Assembly (NCBI GenBank): GCA_035295545.1
Contig: DATGIT010000014.1
Span: 66,449 to 130,448, forward strand
Reading direction: 5' to 3'
Length of the DNA stretch: 64,000 nt
Source of the DNA: Candidatus Binataceae bacterium
Lineage (GTDB): Bacteria > Desulfobacterota > Binatia > Binatales > Binataceae
Positions 5,174 through 29,638 of this stretch are shown one piece after another (the stretch's first letter is position 1; each line of letters opens with the position of its first letter). The notes beneath the pieces were generated by a model, which had not been told where the DNA came from, ran no database searches, and worked only from the letters and a program-made list of their open reading frames with translations. The position numbers were made by a program, and so were the translations under genes.

Positions 5174-7519
5174 CTAATCCGCAGCCGCGGTGTGCAATTC
5201 GGCGCCCGCACCCTGGCTGTGCACAATCGCCTTGAGCAGCCGCGGCGGCGATATCGGCAATTCGGTCATGCGCACGCCGACCGCGCGGTAGATGGCGCTC
5301 GCCACCGCCGGCATCGGCGAGACAATCGACACCTCACCCACGCCGCGCACGCCGAGCGGATGACTCGGATTGGGAACCTCGACCAGGATTGTCTCGATCA
5401 TCGGCAGGTCAAGACAAGTCGGCATGCGATAATCGAGCAGGCCCGTGTTCCGCATGGTGCCGCGTTCGTCGTACACGTACTCTTCGCTGAGCGCCCATCC
5501 GATGCCCTGCGCGGTCGCGCCCTGCAGCTGTCCTTCGACGTATGACGGATGAATCGCGCGGCCGACGTCCTGGGCGACCGCGCAGCGCAGAATTTTCACC
5601 TTGCCGGTTTCCGGATCGACTTCGACGTCGACACAGGTGACGGCGAAGGCGTTGCCGACCGCGCCGACCGCGCCGGCGTTGAGCGTGGCGCGGCCGGTGA
5701 TCGGTCCGCCGGTGCGGCCGAGCCGCGGCACCAGCTCCCTGATCGTCATCGGTTTGACCCCGTTGCCGATTGCGCTCAGGCGGCCGTCGCGGAATTCGAT
5801 CTCCTCGGGTTTCTTCTCCCACAGCTTTGCCGCGCGCTCTTTCAATTGCCGGACCACGTCCTGAGCCGCTTCATACACGGCCATGCCGGTGGCGAGTGTG
5901 ATGCGGCTGCCGCCGGTCACGTCGGTGTGGCCGATGGTATCGGTGTCGACCACCATCGGCCGCACGTCCTGCGCGCCGACCCCCAGGACCTCGGCCGCGA
6001 TCATCGCCATCGCGGCGCGCGACCCGCCGATATCGACCGAGCCGGTGACGACGCTGAGCGTGCCGTCGTTGTGCAGGTTGACCGCGGCGGCGGATTGCAG
6101 GCCGCCATTGAACCAGAAGCCGGCGGCGACGCCGCGGCCGCGGTTGGGACCCTCGAGCGGCGAACGGTAATACTCGCTGTTCTTCAACGCCTCGCAGGTC
6201 TCGATGAATCCGATGCGCTTGTACGGGGGGCCGGCCGGCTGCGGCGTGCCCTCGCGCGCGCCGTTGAGGATGCGGAAATCGAGCGGGTCGATCCCGCAGC
6301 GCAGCGCAAGCTCGTCCACCAGCGACTCGCAGGCGAACGCCGAGCTCGGCGAACCCGGCGCGCGGTAGGCCGCGACCTTGGGCCGATTGACCACCACGTC
6401 GTATGAATCGATCAGCAGATGGGGAATGTCGTAGGGGGCCGAACAGCACATCGCGCCCGGGGCGAAGGGCGAGCCCGGATAGGCGCCCGCCTCGTAGGCC
6501 ATCCAGAACTGCGCGGCGGTGATTTTGCCGTCGCGCGTGGCGCCCATCCTGCCCTTGATCCAGGTGCCCGAGGTCGGGCCGGTGGCGCGCAGCACCTCGG
6601 CGCGATTCATCGTCATCTTCACCGGCCGTCCGCTCTTTTTCGCCAGCAACAGCGCCAGCGGCTCGAGGTAAATCGTGGTTTTGCCGCCGAAGCCGCCGCC
6701 GATTTCCGCCGGCACGACCTTGATGTCGCCCTCGTTCATCTTGAGCACGGTGGCAGTCAGCGTGCGCACGTTGAAGGTGCCCTGGGTCGAGCAATAAATC
6801 GTCGCGTGACCGTCGGAGCTGAAGAGCGCAACGGCGTTGTGCGGCTCGATATATCCCTGATGCACCGTGGCGGTTTTGAACTCGCGTTCGACGATATGGT
6901 CGGCCGCGCGAAAGCCGGCCGCCACGTCGCCGCGCTGGAACTGGATATGCGCCGCCACGTTGGTCGGCCGGTCGGGGCCCTCGGGCGAGCCGGGATCGGA
7001 GCGCCCGGCGATAAACTTCTGGCGAATCTCGGGCAGCAGAACCGGCGCGTCCGGCCGCATCGCCTCTTCCGCAGTCATCACCGGCGGCAACGGTTCATAG
7101 TCGACCTCGATCAGCTTGAGCGCTTCCTCGGCGACGTGCGGACTGACCGCGGCGACCGCGGCGACCGCGTGGCCGTCGTAGAGCACTTTGCCGCGCGCCA
7201 TCACGTTGAGCGACAGATAGTGCGTGTTGATCACCAGCTCGCCCATCATCGCGGTGGTGCCGGGGATATCCGGGAAATCGTCGCCGGTGATGATCGCCTT
7301 CACGCCCTCGAGCGCGGCCGCCCGCTCCGTGCGAATCGCGACGATCCGCGCGTGCGCGTGAGGGCTGCGCAGGACCTTCCCGTGGAGCATCCCTGGAAAC
7401 GAGTAATCGGCGCCGTACCTGGCCCGGCCGGTGACCTTGTCCACGCCGTCGTGACGGATCGGCCGCGTGCCGATAACGCGAAAACTGTCGTGCGAAGCGC
7501 CGTTGCTGGAATTCGCCAT
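5174..7519 (-). CDS. xanthine dehydrogenase family protein, molybdopterin-binding large subunit
   Basis: 781 aa. N-terminus RVIGTRPIRHDGVDKVTGRARYGADY is typical of aldehyde oxidase / XDH / CoxL-type large subunits. Contains AAYRAPGSP, not the form I CO-dehydrogenase VAYRCSFR signature. No 2Fe-2S or FAD subunit gene adjacent. Confidence 0.85.
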   Translation of the reverse strand: MANSSNGASHDSFRVIGTRPIRHDGVDKVTGRARYGADYSFPGMLHGKVLRSPHAHARIVAIRTERAAALEGVKAIITGDDFPDIPGTTAMMGELVINTHYLSLNVMARGKVLYDGHAVAAVAAVSPHVAEEALKLIEVDYEPLPPVMTAEEAMRPDAPVLLPEIRQKFIAGRSDPGSPEGPDRPTNVAAHIQFQRGDVAAGFRAADHIVEREFKTATVHQGYIEPHNAVALFSSDGHATIYCSTQGTFNVRTLTATVLKMNEGDIKVVPAEIGGGFGGKTTIYLEPLALLLAKKSGRPVKMTMNRAEVLRATGPTSGTWIKGRMGATRDGKITAAQFWMAYEAGAYPGSPFAPGAMCCSAPYDIPHLLIDSYDVVVNRPKVAAYRAPGSPSSAFACESLVDELALRCGIDPLDFRILNGAREGTPQPAGPPYKRIGFIETCEALKNSEYYRSPLEGPNRGRGVAAGFWFNGGLQSAAAVNLHNDGTLSVVTGSVDIGGSRAAMAMIAAEVLGVGAQDVRPMVVDTDTIGHTDVTGGSRITLATGMAVYEAAQDVVRQLKERAAKLWEKKPEEIEFRDGRLSAIGNGVKPMTIRELVPRLGRTGGPITGRATLNAGAVGAVGNAFAVTCVDVEVDPETGKVKILRCAVAQDVGRAIHPSYVEGQLQGATAQGIGWALSEEYVYDERGTMRNTGLLDYRMPTCLDLPMIETILVEVPNPSHPLGVRGVGEVSIVSPMPAVASAIYRAVGVRMTELPISPPRLLKAIVHSQGAGAELHTAAAD

Positions 7520-7617
7520 GGCTCAACCTCGTGTGTCGGGCATGTCGTCAAAGGCTATCACGAGCGGCCGCGCCGCGTCACGGGTCGGGTGCGCGACGAA
7601 GGCGCCGCGGCCGCGGG

Positions 7618-8382
7618 TCAGCGTATGGCGTAGCCGCCGTCCACCATGACGGTCGCCCCGGTCACGAAATCGGAGGCGCGCGAGGCGAGGAAGACGGCTG
7701 CGCCCGCGCATTCCTCGGGAGTGCCGAAGCGTCCGGCCGGGGTGCGCCGAATGATGTCGTCGTAAAAGGCCCGGCCCTTGATCGGCCGGGTCATTTCGCT
7801 CTCGATCCATCCGGGCACGATCGCGTTGACCTGGATATTGTGCGCGGCCAGCTCGACCGCCATCGATTTGGTGAGCTGGACGAGCCCGCCCTTGGAGGCG
7901 GCGTAGGACGGCGCGATCGGGTTGCCAAAGGTCGAATACTCGCTTGCGATATTGATGATCTTGCCGCGCCCGCGCGCCGCCATCGAGCGCGCCGCGATCT
8001 GAGCGAGCAGAAAGCATGAGCTGAGATTGGTCTCGAGCACGCGGTCCCAGCTCGCGGCGTCGGCCTTGAGCACGCCGCCGGGAATCGCGATGCCCGCGTT
8101 ATTGACCAGGATGTCGACCGGGCCGAGCTCGCGCTCGACACGCTCGAGCGCAGGGGTCAGCGCTGAGCGCTCGGTCACATCGAGCTGGATCGCGATGGCT
8201 TTTGCGCCGGTCGCGCGAAGCTCCGCAATGACGGACTCGTTGCGCGCCGCGTTGCGCGCCAGGATGGCGATGGCGGCGCCGGCCTGTGCAAGGCCGAGCG
8301 CGATACCGAGTCCGATGCCGCCGTTGCCGCCGGTGACCGCCGCGACACGACCGTCGAGGTTGAATATTTCAGGGGAGGGCAT
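7618..8382 (-). CDS. SDR family NAD(P)-dependent oxidoreductase
   Basis: 254 aa. TGGNGGIGLGIA Rossmann motif. Catalytic YAASK (YxxxK). Confidence 0.85.
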   Translation of the reverse strand: MPSPEIFNLDGRVAAVTGGNGGIGLGIALGLAQAGAAIAILARNAARNESVIAELRATGAKAIAIQLDVTERSALTPALERVERELGPVDILVNNAGIAIPGGVLKADAASWDRVLETNLSSCFLLAQIAARSMAARGRGKIINIASEYSTFGNPIAPSYAASKGGLVQLTKSMAVELAAHNIQVNAIVPGWIESEMTRPIKGRAFYDDIIRRTPAGRFGTPEECAGAAVFLASRASDFVTGATVMVDGGYAIR

Positions 8383-21367: not shown

Positions 21368-22546
21368 TCAGTCCGTCGCGCGCATCGCGCGGGTCAGGAT
21401 CGCCGCGATCTCGGGCCGCGTGAACTCGGGCGGCGGCGCCTCGCCGCGGCGCAGCATCTCGCGCACCTTGGTGCCCGAGAGCAGCAGGCGGTCGGCGTCG
21501 TCGTGCGGACAGGTCTTGTACGAAGCCATCGCCGCGCATTTGCGGCAATAGAAAGTGTTCTCGAAAGTTAGCGGAACGATGCCGATTTCGTCCGGGCTGA
21601 AGCGGTCGAAGATCTTCTGCGCATCGTAAGTGCCGTAGTAGCTGCCCACGCCGGCATGATCGCGTCCGACGATGAAATGCGTGCAGCCGTAATTGCGCCG
21701 CACGATCGCGTGGAGAATCGCCTCGCGCGGCCCGCCATAGCGCATGTGCGCCGGCATCACCGCGAGCATCGCCCGATCGCGCGGGTAGTACAACTCGAGC
21801 ATCACCTTGTAGGTCTCCATCCGCACCGCGGCCGGGACGTCGTCGCCTTTGGTCTCGCCGACCAGCGGATGGAGCAGCAGGCCGTCACAGATCTCGAGCG
21901 CCGCTTTCTGGATATATTCATGCGCGCGATGGGTCGGGTTGCGAGTCTGGAACGCGACGATCTTGCGCCATCCGCGCGCCGCGAACGCCGCGCGGGTCTG
22001 GCGCGGCTCGAGCCGGTACTCGAGGAAGTTGCGGCTCGGGATTTCGGCGAGCAGCGTGACCTCGCCGCCGAGGCACCAGGGCGGCGTGGCGAGCACATTG
22101 GCGGCTCCCGGATGCGCCAGGTCGGCGGTCCCGAATACCGCCTGCGCCTCGCGCGCACGGTCCACGCGGAAAATCTCCGCCAGCTTCATTATCGCGAGCC
22201 GCGCGCCGGCGGCGTCGGCCAGCGCGACCTCGTCGCCCGGTTTGAGCGCGCGCGCTTCGGCCTCGCCCACGCCGAGTGTGATCGGGATCGACCACGGCGC
22301 GCCAGCGGCCAGCCGCATCTCGTCCCGGCTGCGAACGTAATCGGCCTCGCCCATGAAGCCGCGCAGCGGCGAGAACGCGCCCGACGCCAGCATCTCGAGG
22401 TCGGCGAGTTCGCGCGCGCCGAGCGCGATCGTCGTGAGACCCTCGGCGCGGCGCGCGAGCGCGGCGCGCTCGGGCGCCGGCGCCTTGAGATCGACGAGCG
22501 CGCCGCCGCCGTGCGCGCCGATTGCTTCACCGGGTCCGTTGCTCAT
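21368..22546 (-). CDS. sat: sulfate adenylyltransferase (ATP sulfurylase)
   Basis: 393 aa from Met at 22546 ([12 protein letters not shown]). Motifs [33 protein letters not shown] and GRDHAGVG. The first 174 aa of the track ORF are the overlapping frame of cysC. ATGA overlap with the cysC stop. Confidence 0.85.
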
Positions 22547-23103
22547 CGTCCGACTCCATCGCGGCTGATAAAACGGCGCTCTTCGAGACTGGCGAGCAGC
22601 CGGGCGAGACTCTCGTGCGGAGCTTCGCGGCTGGTGACGATCGTCAACTCGGGGGCGAGCGGCGGCTCGTAGGGATCGGAGACGCCGGTGAAGCCCTTGA
22701 GTTCGCCGGCCAGCGCTTTTTTGTACAGTCCCTTGACGTCGCGCTCGACGAGGGTTTCGAGCGGGCACTCGACGTAGGTTTCGAAAAAGCGCGCGTGCTG
22801 GGCGCGCACCTCGTCGCGCACCTCGCGATAGGGCGAGATGGCCGCGGCGATCGCAATCACGCCGTTGCGCGCGAGCAGCTTGCATACGTAGCCGATGCGC
22901 CTGATGTTGGTGTCGCGATCCTCTTTGGAAAAGCCGAGCCCCTTGGACAGATGGGTGCGCACTTCGTCGCCGTCCAGGACCTCGACCCGGTATCCGCGCC
23001 GGCGCAACTCCTCGGCGGCCAGGTTGGCCAGGGTGGACTTGCCCGCGCCCGAGAGACCGGTGAACCACAAGGTAAAGCCCTCGCTCATCGTGTTGGAATT
23101 CAT
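22543..23103 (-). CDS. cysC: adenylyl-sulfate kinase
   Basis: 186 aa. P-loop [14 protein letters not shown]-kinase-like LDGDEVR...G.GFS.EDR region. Confidence 0.85.
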
Positions 23104-23170: not shown

Positions 23171-23905
23171 CTAGTCGGCCGCGTTCCGCGGTGCGAGACC
23201 GAGATGGAGGCTCATTTCCGCCGGCGAAGCAAAGACCGGCGACGCGCCCAGCGCGACGAGCCGCTCGCGCCCTTGTGGCCGCGCATTCACGCCGTAAAAG
23301 CGAACTCGCGCGGCGGCCGCGGCGCGAAGGTCGCTCTCGCTGTCGCCCACGAACGCCGCCTGCGACGGCTCGAGCCGGGCATCCGCCAGCGCGCGCTCCA
23401 GGGTTGCGGGCGAGGGCTTGAGGGCGAGGCGGCTGTCGCGTCCGACGATCCGATCGACGAGGCCGGCCGCGCCGCGCGCGCGCATCCATGCCGCGACCGT
23501 GCGCGACGAATTCGAGGTGACGATTGCGATCGCGGCGCCGGCGGCGCGCAACGCGCCGAGCAGCTCGAGCGCGCCGGGCGCCGGACTTACCGCATCGACG
23601 CCGGCGAGTTCGTAACGTTCGATTATCGCGCATGCGCCGTCAAGGAGCGCGGCCGCGGCGCCGCCGCGCGCCTCGCGCGCAAACGCGGCGCGTGCCGCCT
23701 CGGGCCATGTGGCGTGCGCGGGCTCGCCGCCGGCGGCGAGCCGCGCGCGCAACGCCTCGTACAACAACAGGTTGCCGCGCGGAATTTCCTCGAACAGCGC
23801 CGGCGCGATGCCCGCCGCGGCGAGCCATGCCTGCAATTCGCGCCTGCCGGCGGCCCAATCAACCGCCGGCTCGAGCGGCGCCAGTGTGTTATCGAAATCG
23901 AACAT
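23171..23905 (-). CDS. HAD-superfamily hydrolase
   Basis: Start moved to Met at 23905 (MFDFDNTLAP, the DxDxT nucleophile motif). HAD motifs III/IV (VTSNSSR, FVGDSESD). The first 103 aa of the track ORF are an Arg-rich shadow. Confidence 0.65.
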   Translation of the reverse strand: MFDFDNTLAPLEPAVDWAAGRRELQAWLAAAGIAPALFEEIPRGNLLLYEALRARLAAGGEPAHATWPEAARAAFAREARGGAAAALLDGACAIIERYELAGVDAVSPAPGALELLGALRAAGAAIAIVTSNSSRTVAAWMRARGAAGLVDRIVGRDSRLALKPSPATLERALADARLEPSQAAFVGDSESDLRAAAAARVRFYGVNARPQGRERLVALGASPVFASPAEMSLHLGLAPRNAAD

Positions 23906-23979: not shown

Positions 23980-24651
23980 TCACGGCGTCTCGCAGGCGCA
24001 GCGCGCCGGCGCGACGCCCTCCGATGGGCGTCGAGTCAGTGCAGCTGTGCGGGTCGCCAAGCCGGTAAATTCGATCACTCGCGGTCCGGACATCTCGCCG
24101 ACGCCCGCCAGCATGCGGAGGCATTCGGCCACCGCGACCATCGCGACGACGCCGGCATTTGCGGCGCGATCGCCGATCGCGCTCAGCAGCTTCGCGTCGG
24201 CGCATAGCGGGCACGGCGGCGGCGCCGGCAACATCGCGATCCGGCCCGGTGAGTCGAGCCGCGCCAGGATCGCCGAGCGGGGGCGCCGTGCCCGGAAAAG
24301 CCGCTCGGCGACGGCGGCGGCCGCGGCGTCGCCGAGCAACGCGAGTACCGGATCGGCGCCGACGCCCGGCGCCGGCTCAGCATCCTTCGCGGCGATTTCA
24401 ACCGCGACATCGGCGTCGAGGTCGTTCATTCGCCCGACCAGCCTTCGATACGTCCGAGGTTCGGCCGCGGGATGGATCGCGATATGGCCGACACCCGCTC
24501 CTGCCAGGTACAACGCCGCGGTCTCGGCGGCGGCGGGCGCGGCAACGATCGCCACGCGGGCGGTGCGCAGGCGCTCCTGGGTGCCTGCGCCGAAGCCCGG
24601 CACGATTATCTGCCGGCTGTATCGCTCGATTTGTTCGTCGCTCAGAATCAT
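23980..24651 (-). CDS. ThiF/MoeB-like (E1-like) protein with degenerate nucleotide-binding loop
   Basis: 223 aa. N-terminal LSDEQIERYSRQI is the characteristic E1 motif, but the expected GxGxxG loop is replaced by RVAIVAAPAAAETAALYLAGAGVGHIAI. Single CPLC motif. Confidence 0.6.
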   Translation of the reverse strand: MILSDEQIERYSRQIIVPGFGAGTQERLRTARVAIVAAPAAAETAALYLAGAGVGHIAIHPAAEPRTYRRLVGRMNDLDADVAVEIAAKDAEPAPGVGADPVLALLGDAAAAAVAERLFRARRPRSAILARLDSPGRIAMLPAPPPCPLCADAKLLSAIGDRAANAGVVAMVAVAECLRMLAGVGEMSGPRVIEFTGLATRTAALTRRPSEGVAPARCACETP

Positions 24652-24713: not shown

Positions 24714-24959
24714 CTACTCGATCACGTTTTTCTCGATCGGCTCGACCGTCACGCCGCTTTGCCGCAGCCAGGCAAGCGCGCGCTCGATCTGCTCGTTGGA
24801 GCCCTCGAATTCCACCGCGACCAGGCCCATCTCTTCCGAGACGCTCGCGCCGCGGATATTGAACACCAGGTCGAACTTCTTGACCAGGTGATAAAGCAGG
24901 GGCTCGCGGATGAGCGATTTGGGGTAAGTCAGGTAGTAGCGCTCGCGGAGGCGTTCCAT
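24714..24959 (-). CDS. NIL domain-containing small protein
   Basis: 81 aa from Met at 24959 (MERLRERYYLTYPKSLIREPLLYHLVKKFDLVFNIRGASV...). Resembles the NIL domain at the MetN C-terminus and in sulfur-metabolism-associated small proteins. The upstream part of the track ORF is a shadow of cysM. Confidence 0.5.
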   Translation of the reverse strand: MERLRERYYLTYPKSLIREPLLYHLVKKFDLVFNIRGASVSEEMGLVAVEFEGSNEQIERALAWLRQSGVTVEPIEKNVIE

Positions 24960-25975
24960 TTGCTGACGAGCTTTTCCAGGCGCTCCTTGCGCCACTGTTC
25001 CCATCCGATCCAGAGATTGGTGGATAGATACTTGTCGCCGAAATCCGGAAACACAGTCACCACGCAGCCGTCGCGCAGCTCGCGCGCGACGCGCAGCGCC
25101 GCAACCATCGCCGCGCCCGAGGACTGGCCGACCAGCACACCCTCGAGCTGGCCGAGCGCGTACACCATCTCGTAGGCGTCTTCGGTGCCGATCGCGATGC
25201 GGTCGTCGAGTTCTTCGGCGTGAAAGATGCCGGGGACAATCGAGGACGCCATGTGCTTGAGCCCCTCGAGCCCGTGCATTGCGTCGTCGGGCTCGACCGC
25301 GATCACTTTTATCGCGTCGTTTTGCGCTTTCAGATAGCGGCCGGTGCCCATCACGGTTCCGCCGGTGCCGATGCCGGCGACGAAGTGGGTGACTTCGCCC
25401 GCGGTCTGGCACCAGATCTCGGGCCCGGTGGTTTCAAAATGCGCCAGCGGGTTGGCCTCGTTGTTGTACTGATCGGGCTTGAAGTATTTTTCGGGGTTGG
25501 TGGCGATGATTTTGCGCGAGAGCGTGATCGCGCCGTCCGAGCCTTCGAGCGGATCGGAATAGATCGGCTTGGCGCCGAAGGCTTCGATGATCTTCTTGCG
25601 CTCGCGGCTCACGTTGGAGGCCATCACGATCTCGACCGGATAGCCGAGCGCCGCCCCGACCATCGCGAGCGCGATGCCGGTGTTGCCGGAGGTCGAATCG
25701 ATGATCACCTTGCCCGGGCGCAGCTCGCCGCGCTTGAGCCCCAGCTCGAGCATCTGGCGCACGGCGCGATCCTTGACCGAGCCGCCGGGGTTGAAGCCCT
25801 CGAGCTTGGCGAAAATCCGCACGCCCGGGCGCAGCAGGCCCTCGGTCACGCGCGTGATCTCGAGCAGCGGCGTGTTGCCGATGAGCTCGAGCACGCTGTG
25901 CGCGCGCGACGGCGGAACGTGCTCGAGGCTAGCGGCCGCCGGCGATTGCCGGGACGATTGAAATATCGTCGCCAT
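24929..25975 (-). CDS. cysteine synthase family PLP-dependent enzyme (CysM/CysK-like)
   Basis: 348 aa from Met at 25975 (MATIFQ). LELIGNTPLLEI and the PLP-lysine motif SVKDR. Overlaps the 3' end of the moaD-like gene by 44 nt and the NIL gene by 31 nt. Confidence 0.8.
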   Translation of the reverse strand: MATIFQSSRQSPAAASLEHVPPSRAHSVLELIGNTPLLEITRVTEGLLRPGVRIFAKLEGFNPGGSVKDRAVRQMLELGLKRGELRPGKVIIDSTSGNTGIALAMVGAALGYPVEIVMASNVSRERKKIIEAFGAKPIYSDPLEGSDGAITLSRKIIATNPEKYFKPDQYNNEANPLAHFETTGPEIWCQTAGEVTHFVAGIGTGGTVMGTGRYLKAQNDAIKVIAVEPDDAMHGLEGLKHMASSIVPGIFHAEELDDRIAIGTEDAYEMVYALGQLEGVLVGQSSGAAMVAALRVARELRDGCVVTVFPDFGDKYLSTNLWIGWEQWRKERLEKLVSKWNASASATT

Positions 25976-26207
25976 CCTTGACCTGCGAGTTGAGCTGGTT
26001 GAGGAATCGGATGTCGTCGCCGTTGAGATAAATGTTGACGAAGCGGCGCAGCTCGCCCTTGTCGTCGAGCAGCCGCTCGCGCATTCCCGGATGACGTTTT
26101 TCGAGGTCCTCGATGACCGCGCGCACGGACTCGCCGACGGCCGCCACTTCATCGGTGCCGCCGGTGAACCGGCGCAGGGGGGTGGGTACGCGCACCTTGA
26201 TTGCCAT
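25929..26207 (-). CDS. MoaD/ThiS-family sulfur-carrier protein (CysO-like), C-terminus GG-R
   Basis: 92 aa: MAIKVRVPTPLRRFTGGTDEV...IYLNGDDI...DGDDISIVPAIAGGR. Beta-grasp size and a Gly-Gly one residue before the C-terminus. Confidence 0.7.
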   Translation of the reverse strand: MAIKVRVPTPLRRFTGGTDEVAAVGESVRAVIEDLEKRHPGMRERLLDDKGELRRFVNIYLNGDDIRFLNQLNSQVKDGDDISIVPAIAGGR

Positions 26208-26277: not shown

Positions 26278-27540
26278 TCAGGCCGCGCCCTTGAGCGAGC
26301 GTTTGCCGTCGCCGAGCCGCTCGTAAATCGCGTCGAAATCCTTGAGCCGCGCTTCGATCACCAGCGGCGGCTCGATGCTTTGCGCGACCGCCTCGAGCGT
26401 CTTGTAGCCGTTGCCGGTGATCGATACCACCACGCTCTCATCGGTCTTGATGCGCCCTGAGGCGATGAGCTTGAGCGCCACGGCCAGCGTGGTGCCGCCG
26501 GCGGGTTCGGCAAAGATGCCCTCGGTGCGCGCCAGCAGCTTGATCGCCTCGATGATCTCGGCATCGGCGGCGGCTTCGCCCCATCCGCCCGATTCGCGCA
26601 CCGCGCGCAGCACATAGAAGCCGTCGGCCGGGTTGCCGATCGCGATCGACTTCGCGATGGTGTCGGGCTTGACCGGAGTTATCAGGTCGGTGTTCTTGTG
26701 CAGCGCGTGCACCACCGGCGCCGAGCCCGCGGCCTGGGCGCAATGAATCTTGAACTCACCGCCATGCACCAGGCCGACTTCCTTCAGCTCTTTGAAGGCC
26801 TTGGCGACCTTGGGCAGGATGGTGCCGCCGGCGGTCGGCAGCACGATGTGGTGGGGCAGCTTCCATCCGAGCTGCTCGGCGACCTCGAAGCCGAAGGTCT
26901 TGGCGCCTTCGGTGTAATAGGGTCGGAGATTGATATTTACGAAGGCCCATCCGTACTTGTCCGCGATCTCGCTGCACAGCCGGTTGACGTCGTCATAGTT
27001 GCCGCGAATCGTGATCACGCGCGCGCCGTAGATCGACGAGCCGACGATTTTGCCCGACTCGACGCCTTCGGGCATGAAGATTACCGAGCGCAGCCCGGCG
27101 CGCGCCGCGTGCGCCGCGACCGCCGTGGCCAGGTTGCCGGTCGAGGCGCACGAAACCGTGGTGAAGCCGAAGTCGCGCGCCTTGGTGATCGCCACCGACA
27201 CCACCCGATCTTTGTACGAGAGGGTCGGATGGTTGACGGTGTCGTCCTTGATGTAGAGTTTTTTGAGCCCCAGTTCCGCGCCCAGGCGCCGCGCGTGCAG
27301 CAGCGGGGTGAAGCCCGAGAACGGCCCGGCCTCGGGTTCGCCGTCGACCGGCAGCAGCTCGCGGTAGCGCCAGAGGTTGTGCGGGCGCGAGCCGATCGCG
27401 GCGCGCGAAACCGCCGCGCGAATCGCGGCATAGTCGTAGATCACCTCGAGCGGCCCGAAGCAGTCCTCGCATACATGGAGCGGCTTGATCGGATACTCCT
27501 GGCCGCACTCGCGGCATTTCAGATTGGTGACGTGGCTCAT
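26278..27540 (-). CDS. threonine-synthase-like PLP enzyme with N-terminal zinc ribbon
   Basis: 420 aa. N-terminal CRECGQEYPIKPLHVCEDCFGPLE (C-x2-C..C-x2-C). ThrC-family core (TLSYKDRVVSVAITKA with the PLP lysine, CASTGNLATAVAAHAARAG). Sits between a moeB-like and a moaD-like gene, downstream of a SAM riboswitch. Confidence 0.8.
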   Translation of the reverse strand: MSHVTNLKCRECGQEYPIKPLHVCEDCFGPLEVIYDYAAIRAAVSRAAIGSRPHNLWRYRELLPVDGEPEAGPFSGFTPLLHARRLGAELGLKKLYIKDDTVNHPTLSYKDRVVSVAITKARDFGFTTVSCASTGNLATAVAAHAARAGLRSVIFMPEGVESGKIVGSSIYGARVITIRGNYDDVNRLCSEIADKYGWAFVNINLRPYYTEGAKTFGFEVAEQLGWKLPHHIVLPTAGGTILPKVAKAFKELKEVGLVHGGEFKIHCAQAAGSAPVVHALHKNTDLITPVKPDTIAKSIAIGNPADGFYVLRAVRESGGWGEAAADAEIIEAIKLLARTEGIFAEPAGGTTLAVALKLIASGRIKTDESVVVSITGNGYKTLEAVAQSIEPPLVIEARLKDFDAIYERLGDGKRSLKGAA

Positions 27541-27550
27541 CGCATGATCC

Positions 27551-28279
27551 TCAATGGTTGGTCGTGTGCTCGCGCGCGGCCGCCTCCGCCGCGCTCGGCC
27601 CGATGCCGGGCGCTCGCGCGCATCGGCATTGCGCGCGCACGCTGACCGCGAGCGTGCGCAGCGTTGCGCCCGCGCCGGCGTCGTAGGTCAGAATCCTGCC
27701 CGCGAGTTCCGGCTCCGTGCCGCGAAGCCATCGCAATGCCTCGGCCGCCTCGACCTCGCCGATCGCCGCGGCCACCGGCCCGATGATTCCGGCTTCGCGG
27801 CAGCTTGCGATCTCGCCCGGCGCCGGGGGCTCTTCGAACAGACAGCGCAGGCACGCCGTGCGGCCGGGGATCACGGTCATCGCCTGCCCGCTCATCCCGA
27901 GCACGCCCGCATAAACGAACGGCCGTTGCAGCGCCACGCAGACGTCGTTGATGAGAAACTTGGAGGCGGGATCGTCGGTCGCATCGATGACGAAACCGTG
28001 ACGCCCGATCAGATCCGCGGCGTTGGCGGCGTCGAGTGCGACCGGGTAGGTTGCCACCGCCACGCCCGGGTAATCCTTGCGCAGACGTTCGGCGGCGGCC
28101 TCGACCTTGAGCCGGCCGAGACTCGATATGCCATAGATCACCTGGCGCGGCAGGTTGGAGAGGGCGACGCTATCGAAGTCGACCAGGCCGAGCCGCGCCG
28201 CGCCGCCGCGCGCGAGGGCGCACGCGGCGGGAACTCCCAGGCCGCCCATGCCGATGATCAGGATCGATTGATTTGCCAA
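27551..28279 (-). CDS. ThiF/MoeB-family E1-like adenylyltransferase
   Basis: 242 aa. Intact Rossmann loop ILIIGMGGLGVPAA and VDFDSVALSNLPRQ. Zinc motifs CLRC / CRC. Lacks the N-terminal RYSRQ helix present in the other ThiF-like gene (23980..24651). Confidence 0.8.
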   Translation of the reverse strand: MANQSILIIGMGGLGVPAACALARGGAARLGLVDFDSVALSNLPRQVIYGISSLGRLKVEAAAERLRKDYPGVAVATYPVALDAANAADLIGRHGFVIDATDDPASKFLINDVCVALQRPFVYAGVLGMSGQAMTVIPGRTACLRCLFEEPPAPGEIASCREAGIIGPVAAAIGEVEAAEALRWLRGTEPELAGRILTYDAGAGATLRTLAVSVRAQCRCARAPGIGPSAAEAAAREHTTNH

Positions 28280-28327
28280 GTCATCCTCACGCCCGGCCTT
28301 GCCATTCCGTGCTGCGTCGCGAGGGGC

Positions 28328-28367
28328 AAAAAATAAAAAACCCTCGTTCCGGATAAGGACGAGGGTA
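28328..28367 (-). terminator. intrinsic terminator (expression platform of the SAM-I riboswitch)
   Basis: Minus strand CCCUCGU-CCUUAUCCGGA-ACGAGGG followed by UUUUUUAUUUUUU. The loop CCUUAUCC is identical to the 5' strand of riboswitch P1, allowing an antiterminator/terminator switch. Confidence 0.75.
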
Positions 28368-28379
28368 CCAGGACTCTCG

Positions 28380-28490
28380 CCTTATCTACCGAAGCCTCGT
28401 GCGGGCTCCGTTGGAGTTAGCACCAGCACCCTGTTGCGGGCCGGTTGCTGCGGCATCATCGGGCCAGTCCCTCCGCCGCTCTGGATAAGG
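28380..28490 (-). promoter_or_regulatory. SAM-I (S-box) riboswitch aptamer
   Basis: Minus-strand RNA CCUUAUCCAGAGCGGCGGAGGGACUGGCCCGAUGAUGCCGCAGCAACC...GGUGCUAACUCC...GGUAGAUAAGG matches the SAM-I consensus (UUAUCaAGAGnGGcgGAGGGAcuGGCCCgAUGAagCCcgGCAACC ... GGUGCcAAuUCC ... AGAUgAG). P1 is formed by CCUUAUC / GAUAAGG. A possible -35 TTGACT lies at 28534..28529. Confidence 0.8.
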
Positions 28491-28738
28491 CCATCAGGCC
28501 CATTACGGTTACCGGAGCCCCGGCCCAAAGTCAACCGCCGACCTATCGGTCAGGCGCCATCGAAGCCGGCGCGCGAGCGCGAATTGCGCAAGCCGGCGGC
28601 AGGAGTAAGACGCGCCGCGTATCGCACGATGGGGCGTTTTTCCTTGCGGGATTTGTCGGGCGATGCTTTAAGGGGGCTTGCCACCGGAGCTTTTGCGGCG
28701 GATCGCGGCCGCAATTTTTCCCGGCACGGGAGGTACCT

Positions 28739-29638
28739 ATGCGTATTGGATTTATCGGGCTCGGCAACATGGGCGGCTCGATGGCGCTCAACCTGATGAA
28801 GGCGGGCCACCAGGTTACGGTCAATGACGTGCGCCGCCAGATGGCCGAGCCGCATCTTGCCGGCGGCGCAAAATGGGCCGACAGCGCGGCTGCCGTCGCC
28901 CGGGAAGCTGAAGTCGTCTTTACCTCGTTGCCCGGACCGCGCGAGGTCGAAGCCGTGGCGCTTGGCGAGGGCGGGCTCATCGGCGCGATGGCGCCGGGCA
29001 GCCTGTACATCGATCTCTCGACCAATTCGCCGACCGTCGTGCGCCAGGTTCACGCGCGACTCAAGGCGCGCGGCATCCGGATGCTCGATGCACCGGTGAG
29101 CGGCGGCGTGGTCGGCGCGCGCAAGGCGACACTCGCGGTGATGGTCGGCGGGAGCGAGGCGGATTACAACGAAGTCAAGCCGGTGCTCGACGCGATCGGC
29201 GATAAGGTGACGTATATCGGCGAGATCGGCGCCGGTTCGGTGGCCAAACTGGTGCATAACATGATCGCCATCTGCTCGACGCAGTTGCTGGCCGAGGCGT
29301 TCACGATGGGAGTGAAGGCGGGAGTGTCGCCCGAGGCGCTGCTGCGCGCGGTGCAGGGTGGCGCTTACGGGCAGGGGATGGTGTTGAACGCGGCGCTGCC
29401 CAAGATGATCTTTCGCGGCACTTTCGATCGGGTGACGTTCGCGCTCAAGCTGGCGCGCAAGGACCTCGGCCTCGCCACCGAGCTGGCGCGCGAGCTGAAC
29501 GTGCCCATGCCGATGGCCGCGCACGCAGAGCAGGACTTTCTCGAGGCGCTGAACAAGGGCTGGGGCGAGAAGGATTCGTCCGCGACCTTCATGGTCCAGG
29601 AAGAGCGCGCCGGCGTGAAGGTGCGCGCCGCCACCTGA
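28739..29638 (+). CDS. NAD(P)-dependent 3-hydroxyacid dehydrogenase (3-hydroxyisobutyrate dehydrogenase family)
   Basis: Start moved to ATG at 28739 (MRIGFIGLGNMGGSMALNL), with GGGAGG 6 nt upstream. Motifs DAPVSGG and KLVHNMI typical of the HIBADH/6PGDH-like family. Confidence 0.8.
   Translation: MRIGFIGLGNMGGSMALNLMKAGHQVTVNDVRRQMAEPHLAGGAKWADSAAAVAREAEVVFTSLPGPREVEAVALGEGGLIGAMAPGSLYIDLSTNSPTVVRQVHARLKARGIRMLDAPVSGGVVGARKATLAVMVGGSEADYNEVKPVLDAIGDKVTYIGEIGAGSVAKLVHNMIAICSTQLLAEAFTMGVKAGVSPEALLRAVQGGAYGQGMVLNAALPKMIFRGTFDRVTFALKLARKDLGLATELARELNVPMPMAAHAEQDFLEALNKGWGEKDSSATFMVQEERAGVKVRAAT

Follow-up and report, generated by a model that had tools for sequence, protein, structure and literature searches.

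Which metabolism does a regulatory RNA serve when the first genes behind it belong, by family, as easily to molybdopterin or thiamin synthesis as to the making of sulfur amino acids? The question is raised by the minus strand of a 64,000-nucleotide (nt) stretch of contig DATGIT010000014.1 from a Candidatus Binataceae bacterium (assembly GCA_035295545.1, positions 66,449 to 130,448). The whole of this stretch is called the window here, and coordinates are counted from its first letter. A sequence-only reading of the DNA had proposed an S-adenosylmethionine (SAM) riboswitch of the SAM-I class, followed by a terminator, and had placed the downstream genes in methionine or homocysteine synthesis. 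The minus-strand sequence quoted in support is present in the window exactly as given. Our analysis favors, with a probability of roughly 0.82, attenuation by a SAM-I riboswitch of a nine-gene thiocarboxylate operon that would lead from sulfate to thiol amino acids.

A scan of the entire window against Rfam with cmscan returned RF00162 (SAM-I, the S-box leader) with 88.6 bits and an E-value of 1e-19 at 28379-28491 of the minus strand, twice the gathering score of 44.4, and no other family at its gathering threshold. The alignment spans model positions 1-108 of 108, is not truncated, and matches nearly all of the strongly conserved consensus positions. When 28200-28800 was rescanned permissively on both strands (E<=1), RF00162 was again the sole family. 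This match is far beyond chance and bears out the riboswitch class proposed earlier, with the correction that the ends are 28379 and 28491 instead of 28380 and 28490. The parts of the leader on which the argument depends are the following.

28379..28491, minus strand: SAM-I (S-box) aptamer, RF00162 at full length, in which P1, P3, and P4 covary and the pseudoknot joining the P2 loop to J3-4 does so in part
28491-28484, minus strand: P1 5' strand, part of the aptamer
28386-28379, minus strand: P1 3' strand, part of the aptamer
28352..28365, minus strand: switching strand CCCUCGUCCUUAUC, whose partner is either the P1 3' strand with the linker (antiterminator) or the 3' arm of the terminator
28340..28366, minus strand: intrinsic terminator hairpin, -15.3 kcal/mol
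28328..28339, minus strand: U-tract, read from the sequence as U5-A-U6 after the stem-closing U at 28340

Relatives were gathered through the ThrC-like protein of the operon (82-96% amino acid identity), giving 80 loci from species-level genomes, mostly titled Candidatus Binataceae, Binatus, or 'uncultured delta proteobacterium'. A SAM-I leader occupies the same position in 73 of the 80, and the aptamers of the relatives score 83-91 bits against RF00162. Six of the seven loci without a leader have too little upstream sequence to tell, and the seventh, L042, is rearranged. This last locus (5872-8000) is the only long one devoid of both the riboswitch and ThiF1, the first gene of the operon in the window; unrelated genes for a sigma-54 activator, a response regulator, and a DUF4870 protein stand ahead of its ThrC-like gene. 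By its gene content, L042 would be a rearranged or second copy under different control.

For the aptamer itself, covariation was assessed in 68 distinct relatives, from which RNAalifold recovered P1-P4. The predicted pairs are formed in 96.2% of cells, as against 31-48% in shifted registers, and 10 pairs show changes on both sides. The covariation score is 0.162 versus 0.093 in shuffles, a value reached by none of 500 shuffles. The formation of P1-P4 is thus backed by significant covariation, most of it located in P4 and some in P1 and P3, P2 being invariant across the relatives and hence uninformative. In the pseudoknot, two G-C pairs are invariant and a third is C-G in 54 of the 68 sequences; a fourth is formed in 25 of 68 only, yet it alternates among U-A, A-U, and G-C. 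The window sequence can make three of these pairs (UGG with CCA). Judged by these comparisons, the element is a genuine SAM-I riboswitch on a canonical terminator/antiterminator platform, and it would be expected to bind SAM.

The expression platform starts 12 nt past P1 with the hairpin ACCCUCGUCC-UUAUCC-GGAACGAGGGU (28366-28340), followed by U6-A-U6 to 28328. As had been noticed from the letters, the hairpin repeats part of the P1 5' strand: the 8-mer CCUUAUCC (28490-28483) recurs at 28358-28351, in the 5' arm and loop of the terminator. The switching strand can alternatively form a duplex of -16.4 kcal/mol with GAUAAGGCGAGAG, composed of the P1 3' strand and the linker. Constrained folding of the nascent transcript, taken as far as the terminator loop, gives the antiterminator the lowest energy, at -56.8 kcal/mol versus -55.7 kcal/mol for P1, a difference of 1.1. 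For the complete leader, the minimum is P1 plus terminator, at -70.3 kcal/mol versus -63.6 kcal/mol for the antiterminator. Terminator and antiterminator are therefore mutually exclusive and energetically balanced, in agreement with the antitermination logic first suggested, and this is the classic S-box OFF design. The minus-strand terminator was overlooked by a consensus terminator scan, probably because its loop exceeds the 8-nt limit of that scan, and was found by direct folding.

The first open reading frame (ORF) begins with TTG at 28279, about 48 nt past the U-tract, which agrees with the earlier estimate of about 50 nt, and is preceded by the Shine-Dalgarno (SD) sequence GAGGA at 28288-28284. 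In the intervening segment (28284-28327, minus strand), CCCCUCGC can pair with GCGUGAGG, burying GAGGA in a structure of -20.4 kcal/mol. This hairpin may be an additional translational layer or incidental.

A hairpin is found at the terminator position in about two thirds of the related loci, and the conservation of the platform was tested in 43 leaders having a terminator. There, the antiterminator is paired at 97.4%, versus 37-62% in shifted registers, and the terminator at 90.3%, versus 28-64%. About 25 related leaders have the same aptamer and no intrinsic terminator, and keep a GGCGAG.G/C.CUCGUC helix. Nineteen of these were aligned (L027, L030, L031, L035, L036, L038, L045, L047, L048, L050, L056-L058, L061, L063-L066, and L073); in them, an SD-like sequence 12-20 nt ahead of a GTG start is spanned by an invariant CUCUCG-N-CGGGAG hairpin, the region concerned lying about 10-120 nt past the aptamer. 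Further terminator-less leaders are L014, L017, L022, L024, L034, and L072. An attempt to derive a SAM-dependent relay for them gave no consistent OFF logic.

What lies behind the switch is longer than the moeB-thrC-like-moaD-cysM string described at first. Those four families are present, and the cluster runs five genes further, giving nine tightly packed minus-strand genes, which are spaced by -31 to 74 nt and have no convincing terminator among them. In the direction of transcription, they are the following.

27551..28279, minus strand: ThiF1, a ThiF/MoeB-type adenylyltransferase of 242 amino acids, TTG start, SD GAGGA (Pfam ThiF, 2.2e-62)
26278..27540, minus strand: ThrC-like pyridoxal phosphate (PLP) enzyme of 420 amino acids with an N-terminal Cys4 Zn-ribbon (PALP, 9e-72; NF006050, 327 bits)
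25929..26207, minus strand: CysO/MetO-type sulfur carrier of 92 amino acids, ending ...AIAGG-R (Pfam ThiS, 5.4e-16)
24929..25894, minus strand: CysM-like PLP sulfhydrylase, 321 amino acids from GTG 25894 (TIGR01138 cysM, 373.9 bits, below the cutoff of 394.2)
24714..24959, minus strand: stand-alone NIL-domain protein of 81 amino acids (Pfam NIL, 3.2e-16)
23980..24651, minus strand: ThiF2, a degenerate E1-like (activating enzyme-like) protein of 223 amino acids (Pfam ThiF matches residues 11-59 only)
23171..23905, minus strand: HAD-family hydrolase, 244 amino acids from ATG 23905 (HAD_2, 6.5e-20)
22543..23103, minus strand: adenosine 5'-phosphosulfate (APS) kinase CysC (APS_kinase, 3.2e-61; NF002059, 273.9 bits, cutoff 244)
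21368..22546, minus strand: ATP sulfurylase Sat, the last gene of the operon (ATP-sulfurylase, 1.1e-97, plus PUA_2; NF003166, 528.9 bits, cutoff 387)

All nine genes in this order constitute the commonest synteny pattern (43 rows, including that of the window itself), the shorter patterns being mostly on short contigs. From packing and synteny, the nine genes would be co-transcribed. The ThrC-like gene is the most conserved of the operon, and its pairing with the carrier gene, which in the window leaves a gap of 70 nt, is kept in all 80 loci. Where the CysM-like gene starts is uncertain. GTG 25894, 34 nt past the carrier stop, lacks an SD, and with the alternative ATG 25975 the gene would share 47 nt with the carrier gene in a different frame. 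The first 31 nt of the NIL gene lie within the end of the CysM-like gene, and the NIL protein shows 79-100% identity among loci. In the DUF39 pathway, NIL domains have a genetic link to homocysteine synthesis. The HAD hydrolase matched only generic HAD subfamily models in NCBIfam and no equivalog model at its cutoff. A public protein cluster, P0230, which is annotated with both NIL and ThiF domains and looks like a NIL-ThiF2 fusion, was rejected as a frameshift read-through of the two adjacent genes.

The best matches of the carrier in the Protein Data Bank (PDB) are 4n6e_B (E 7.5e-24) and Mycobacterium tuberculosis CysO (3dwg_C, E 5.5e-23, 84 bits), and MoaD and ThiS proper score far lower than the CysO chains. 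The solved CysO chains stop exactly at GG. In contrast, the carriers of the window and of every one of the 80 loci continue past the GG of AIAGG by a variable extension, which is R in the window (25929-25937, minus strand), SAV in L079, and a single R, E, D, N, Y, V, H, C, L, or A in the other 79 loci. So poorly constrained a cap implies that the carrier would be matured by proteolysis. The CysM-like protein, flanking the carrier on its other side, is closest to the CysM structures of Escherichia coli and Salmonella (enterobacterial CysM 240 bits, M. tuberculosis CysM 202 bits). This gene order suggests that one carrier could serve both homocysteine and cysteine synthesis.

The ThrC-like gene is annotated 'threonine synthase' throughout the public records. 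Its product aligns to solved threonine synthases from about residue 55 only. A tblastn search of annotated records led to a locus in Nonomuraea gerenzanensis (L081; NZ_LT559118.1, 5816-7506) with 52% identity, versus 35-39% for ordinary thrC genes. Here, a SAM-I riboswitch of 68.7 bits stands directly upstream of a Zn-ribbon ThrC-like gene, which is followed by a 91-amino acid carrier, 45% identical to that of the window and ending exactly at GG, and then by GroEL; there is no CysM. Over 404 residues, the ThrC-like protein of the window is 53% identical to this riboswitch-linked protein, versus 35-39% for ordinary plasmid-borne thrC. The ATG lies 13 nt past P1, a spacing that indicates translational control in Nonomuraea. 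The region is unannotated in its record, which is listed as a plasmid though it is 11.85 Mb long. In Streptomyces albulus, MetM (ThrC-like) and MetO (the carrier) convert O-phosphohomoserine to homocysteine, and a SAM riboswitch precedes metM (PMC12172450). Since the Nonomuraea locus reproduces this published arrangement, a MetM-type homocysteine synthase is the best reading of the ThrC-like gene, and such an activity is probable.

Some relatives hold further genes inside the operon. In L067 (12341-16782), these are sulfite reductase, 3'-phosphoadenosine 5'-phosphosulfate (PAPS) reductase, a 173-amino acid uncharacterised protein, and the siroheme synthase CysG. A Na/sulfate symporter-family gene is found in L024 (13556-15256), a TauE/SafE-family gene in L031 (14384-15301), and an ATP-binding cassette (ABC) ATPase in L078 (10931-11986). 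With reductases, siroheme synthase, and transporter-family genes inside the relatives' operons, the operon of the family would be a sulfate-assimilation-to-thiol-amino-acid module. The assignment to methionine or homocysteine, and not to molybdopterin or thiamin, thus finds support in the CysO-like carrier, CysC and Sat, the sulfite and PAPS reductases of relatives, the Nonomuraea locus, and the published MetM/MetO system.

The mechanism that these observations suggest would run as follows. A conserved TTGACT promoter would start transcription, probably at a position just a few nucleotides ahead of P1. At low SAM, the P1 3' strand and linker, GAUAAGGCGAGAG, would pair with CCCUCGUCCUUAUC as antiterminator, and the polymerase would enter the operon. 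At high SAM, the bound ligand would stabilize P1, leaving CCCUCGUCC free to pair with GGAACGAGGG into the terminator ahead of U6AU6, and transcription in the cell would be predicted to end about 50 nt ahead of the first gene. Among the predicted enzymes, Sat and CysC would activate sulfate, and ThiF1, possibly together with the pseudo-E1 ThiF2, would adenylate the CysO/MetO-type carrier, which would then be converted to its thiocarboxylate. The ThrC-like, MetM-type enzyme would use this thiocarboxylate and O-phosphohomoserine to make homocysteine, and the CysM-like enzyme would probably make cysteine from the same carrier.

Several findings weigh against this account. Neither the terminator helix nor the antiterminator helix covaries significantly in the 43 leaders, because the strand that they share is nearly invariant, and the support for the platform is conserved pairing potential, position, and energetics instead of covariation. 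About a third of the related leaders have no terminator and must work differently, so termination is not universal in the family. Sulfite reductase and PAPS reductase are absent from the window, as is any JAMM/Mec/HcyD-type protease in a six-frame HxHx7Sx2D scan and in Pfam scans of the flanking ORFs (27 ORFs covering most of about 4-46 kb of the window). Also, NCBIfam threonine synthase models recognize the ThrC-like protein above their cutoffs. A rival explanation accepts the riboswitch but has it act, chiefly or in addition, on translation initiation, by occluding the SD with the CCCCUCGC...GCGUGAGG hairpin before the TTG, or through Rho. The leader between U-tract and start can indeed bury GAGGA, the roughly 25 terminator-less relatives keep their invariant CUCUCG...CGGGAG hairpin over an SD-like sequence, and the Nonomuraea homologue appears clearly translational. 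However, the hairpin of the window is strong, well placed, and followed by a 12-nt U-rich tract, it shares a strand with the antiterminator, and the same holds in about two thirds of the relatives; moreover, no consistent SAM-dependent relay from P1 to the SD hairpin could be derived. We consider this explanation unlikely for the window.

A different product has to be weighed too. The operon could combine a cysteine pathway like the CysO-CysM route of M. tuberculosis with a true threonine synthase, and the riboswitch would then control cysteine and threonine, not homocysteine. This fits the resemblance of the carrier to CysO, the adjoining CysM-like gene, the NCBIfam scores, and the uniform 'threonine synthase' annotation, but SAM-I riboswitches mark methionine and SAM metabolism, and the ThrC-like protein is, Zn-ribbon included, distinctly closer to the Nonomuraea protein, encoded in a two-gene riboswitch unit without CysM, than to ordinary ThrC. 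Its gene is also conserved more than any other in the operon. Threonine synthase is a common wrong annotation for MetM, and the Streptomyces MetM/MetO route uses MoeZ and Mec encoded elsewhere (GapMind 2026 preprint). Control of cysteine and threonine is on balance improbable, even more so than translational control. As for a molybdopterin or thiamin cluster (MoeB/MoaD or ThiF/ThiS) with an S-box likeness that is fortuitous or a relic, all that speaks for it is that the generic Pfam families ThiF/MoeB and ThiS/MoaD match. The aptamer is kept with compensatory changes in 73 loci, the neighbors are PLP sulfhydrylase-type enzymes and sulfate-activation genes, and the flanking-ORF Pfam scans found no moaA/C/E or thiG/H/C within about 15 kb. 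Together, the RF00162 score, the covariation, the CysO-like carrier, and the sulfur-gene context effectively refute it. The same scans detected no other sulfur or methionine gene within about 15 kb in the window, and no rhodanese, cysH, sir, thrB, or met gene in the window.

SAM-dependent attenuation of a homocysteine-forming operon, the reading we retain, can be compared with several known systems. With S-box leaders such as those of Bacillus subtilis yitJ and metE, the element shares the P1-P4 four-way junction, the conserved core, and an expression platform where terminator and antiterminator alternate and the P1 3' strand serves as anti-antiterminator; their P2-loop/J3-4 pseudoknot is partly supported here. 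It differs in its host, an uncultured member of the Binatota with about 65% GC, and in an operon of the protein-thiocarboxylate route and not of the metA/metY or metE type. The cysH operon of B. subtilis is an earlier example of S-box control over sat, cysC, and cysH. The MetM/MetO pathway from O-phosphohomoserine to homocysteine in S. albulus was reportedly described by Hasebe et al. in 2024. With this system and with Nonomuraea L081, the window shares a SAM-I element directly upstream and a ThrC-like gene followed by a CysO-like carrier, although here the ThiF1 gene intervenes between riboswitch and ThrC-like gene; the N-terminal Zn-ribbon is common to the ThrC-like proteins of the window and of L081. 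However, the actinomycete unit has two genes, a translational switch, and a carrier ending at GG, whereas the window operon has a transcriptional switch and a GG+X-capped carrier and adds a dedicated E1, a pseudo-E1, and the CysM-like, NIL, HAD, CysC, and Sat proteins.

The CysO-CysM-Mec-MoeZ pathway of M. tuberculosis likewise has a CysO-type carrier adjoining a CysM-family PLP enzyme. In contrast to it, the JAMM-motif scan of the window and the Pfam scans of the flanking ORFs found neither a Mec (JAMM) protease nor a rhodanese-fused MoeZ, either of which could sit elsewhere in the genome; moreover, the CysM-like protein of the window is closer to enterobacterial CysM and control is by SAM. 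A further parallel is the HcyS/HcyF/HcyD/MetY system of Wolinella succinogenes, said to have been described by Krishnamoorthy and Begley in 2011 as thiocarboxylate-dependent homocysteine synthesis. There, the carrier has one removable residue after GG, a dedicated ThiF-type enzyme is present, and the genes cluster with those of sulfate assimilation. The window resembles it in all of these traits, namely the extra residue after GG, a dedicated ThiF-type E1, and the clustering with sulfate-assimilation genes. However, in Wolinella it is MetY (fold type I, O-acetylhomoserine) that accepts the sulfur and not a ThrC-like enzyme, and the processing protease HcyD, absent here, is in the cluster there.

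The two ThiF-family proteins of the operon show complementary defects. ThiF1 has no N-terminal arginine-finger segment, its Pfam ThiF match beginning at profile position 20, and this short N-terminus is conserved in 76 loci. Its GxGxxG and most of the motifs shared with MoeB (PRQ, K58, TDD, and the first CxxC) are well conserved, it has no rhodanese domain in Pfam, and it falls below every MoeB and ThiF equivalog cutoff in NCBIfam. ThiF2, in contrast, has lost the GxGxxG loop and retains an invariant N-terminal RYSRQII arginine-finger motif together with a conserved Cys4 site. It is fast-evolving (34-60% identity, variable length) and is mostly annotated as 'hypothetical protein', occasionally as MoeB/ThiF-type. 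Its AlphaFold2 (AF2) model (predicted local distance difference test, pLDDT, 88.6) has the ThiF/MoeB/Uba4 fold, with template modeling (TM) scores of 0.62-0.69. The arginine finger of ThiF (R11) and MoeB (R14) acts in trans across the dimer and is reportedly non-essential in both, and the yeast Tcd1-Tcd2 heterodimer of the ThiF family divides labor in that way (PMC13139853). The complementary defects and this precedent therefore make a ThiF1-ThiF2 heterodimer plausible, with ThiF2 donating the arginine finger. The likeness to heterodimeric E1 enzymes (Tcd1-Tcd2, and also NAE1-UBA3 and SAE1-SAE2) lies in a finger-less catalytic ThiF1 and a finger-bearing ThiF2 without GxGxxG. Alternatively, ThiF1 could work alone as a homodimer, the finger being non-essential in ThiF and MoeB.

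From these parts, an expanded thiocarboxylate pathway specific to the Binatota can be tentatively drawn, a proposal we hold as possible and no more. In it, a GG+X carrier would feed both MetM- and CysM-type synthases, activation would fall to a split E1 made of finger-less ThiF1 and a ThiF2 that keeps little invariant beyond the finger, a glycine-rich segment, and the Zn site, NIL and HAD would be further parts, and a palindromic operator would act besides SAM attenuation. Neither the SAM-I class nor its link to a homocysteine pathway with a ThrC-like enzyme and a sulfur carrier is new; what is new is the phylum. As more unusual leads, we infer the capped carrier, the possible split E1, NIL, HAD, the dual synthases, and the promoter palindrome. 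Our knowledge of SAM-I riboswitches is unchanged by this locus, and its main value is a correction of annotation: at the sequence level, the riboswitch argues independently for relabeling the operon as one of methionine/homocysteine and sulfur-assimilation genes across a large uncultured soil phylum. The MetM/MetO route, recently described in Actinomycetota and with reported cyanobacterial homologues, would also extend to Binatota, and one aptamer would be found on different platforms, transcriptional in the window and translational in Nonomuraea.

Upstream of the aptamer, the control region includes three features.

28529..28534, minus strand: -35 box TTGACT; each of the 73 distinct upstream regions has TTGAC(A/T) at 35-60 nt ahead of the aptamer
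28506..28513, minus strand: -10-like region GGTAACCG, which aligns with GATAAC/TATAAC boxes of relatives and is a weak TATAAT match in the window
28540..28552, minus strand: inverted repeat TGACCGATAGGTC (GACC-N4-GGTC), a putative regulator site 5 nt upstream of the -35 box

The left edge of the element in the sequence-only reading, 28534, coincides with the conserved -35 box. An A/T-rich -10-like box follows the -35 box across relatives, and a consensus scan reported no sigma-70 site at the promoter of the window. GACC-N4-GGTY turns up in the 30 nt ahead of the -35 box in 53 of the 73 distinct related leaders, the chance being about 0.003 per 30-mer, most often at a spacing of 6 nt, compared with 5 nt in the window. 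The palindrome may be an operator and would then add a second, protein-mediated layer of control besides the riboswitch.

Both flanks of the operon are occupied by unrelated plus-strand genes. On the 3' side are a SnoaL-like gene and a sulfatase, and on the 5' side a 3-hydroxyisobutyrate-dehydrogenase-family gene from ATG 28739, followed by a CMD-family gene. The plus-strand ORFs 28445-29638, 28299-28796, and 27554-28336 were rejected as coding, given that the dehydrogenase domain starts at ATG 28739 in the first and the others are antisense shadows of GC-rich DNA. ORF 28445-29638 lengthens the dehydrogenase ORF by 98 codons across the aptamer, and automated gene calling could therefore mask the RNA element through this spurious extension. 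Finally, positions 28693-28722 of the plus strand hold a GC-rich hairpin, TTGCGGCGGATCGCGGCCGCAA, with TTTTT behind it, about 17 nt before the divergent dehydrogenase ATG at 28739.

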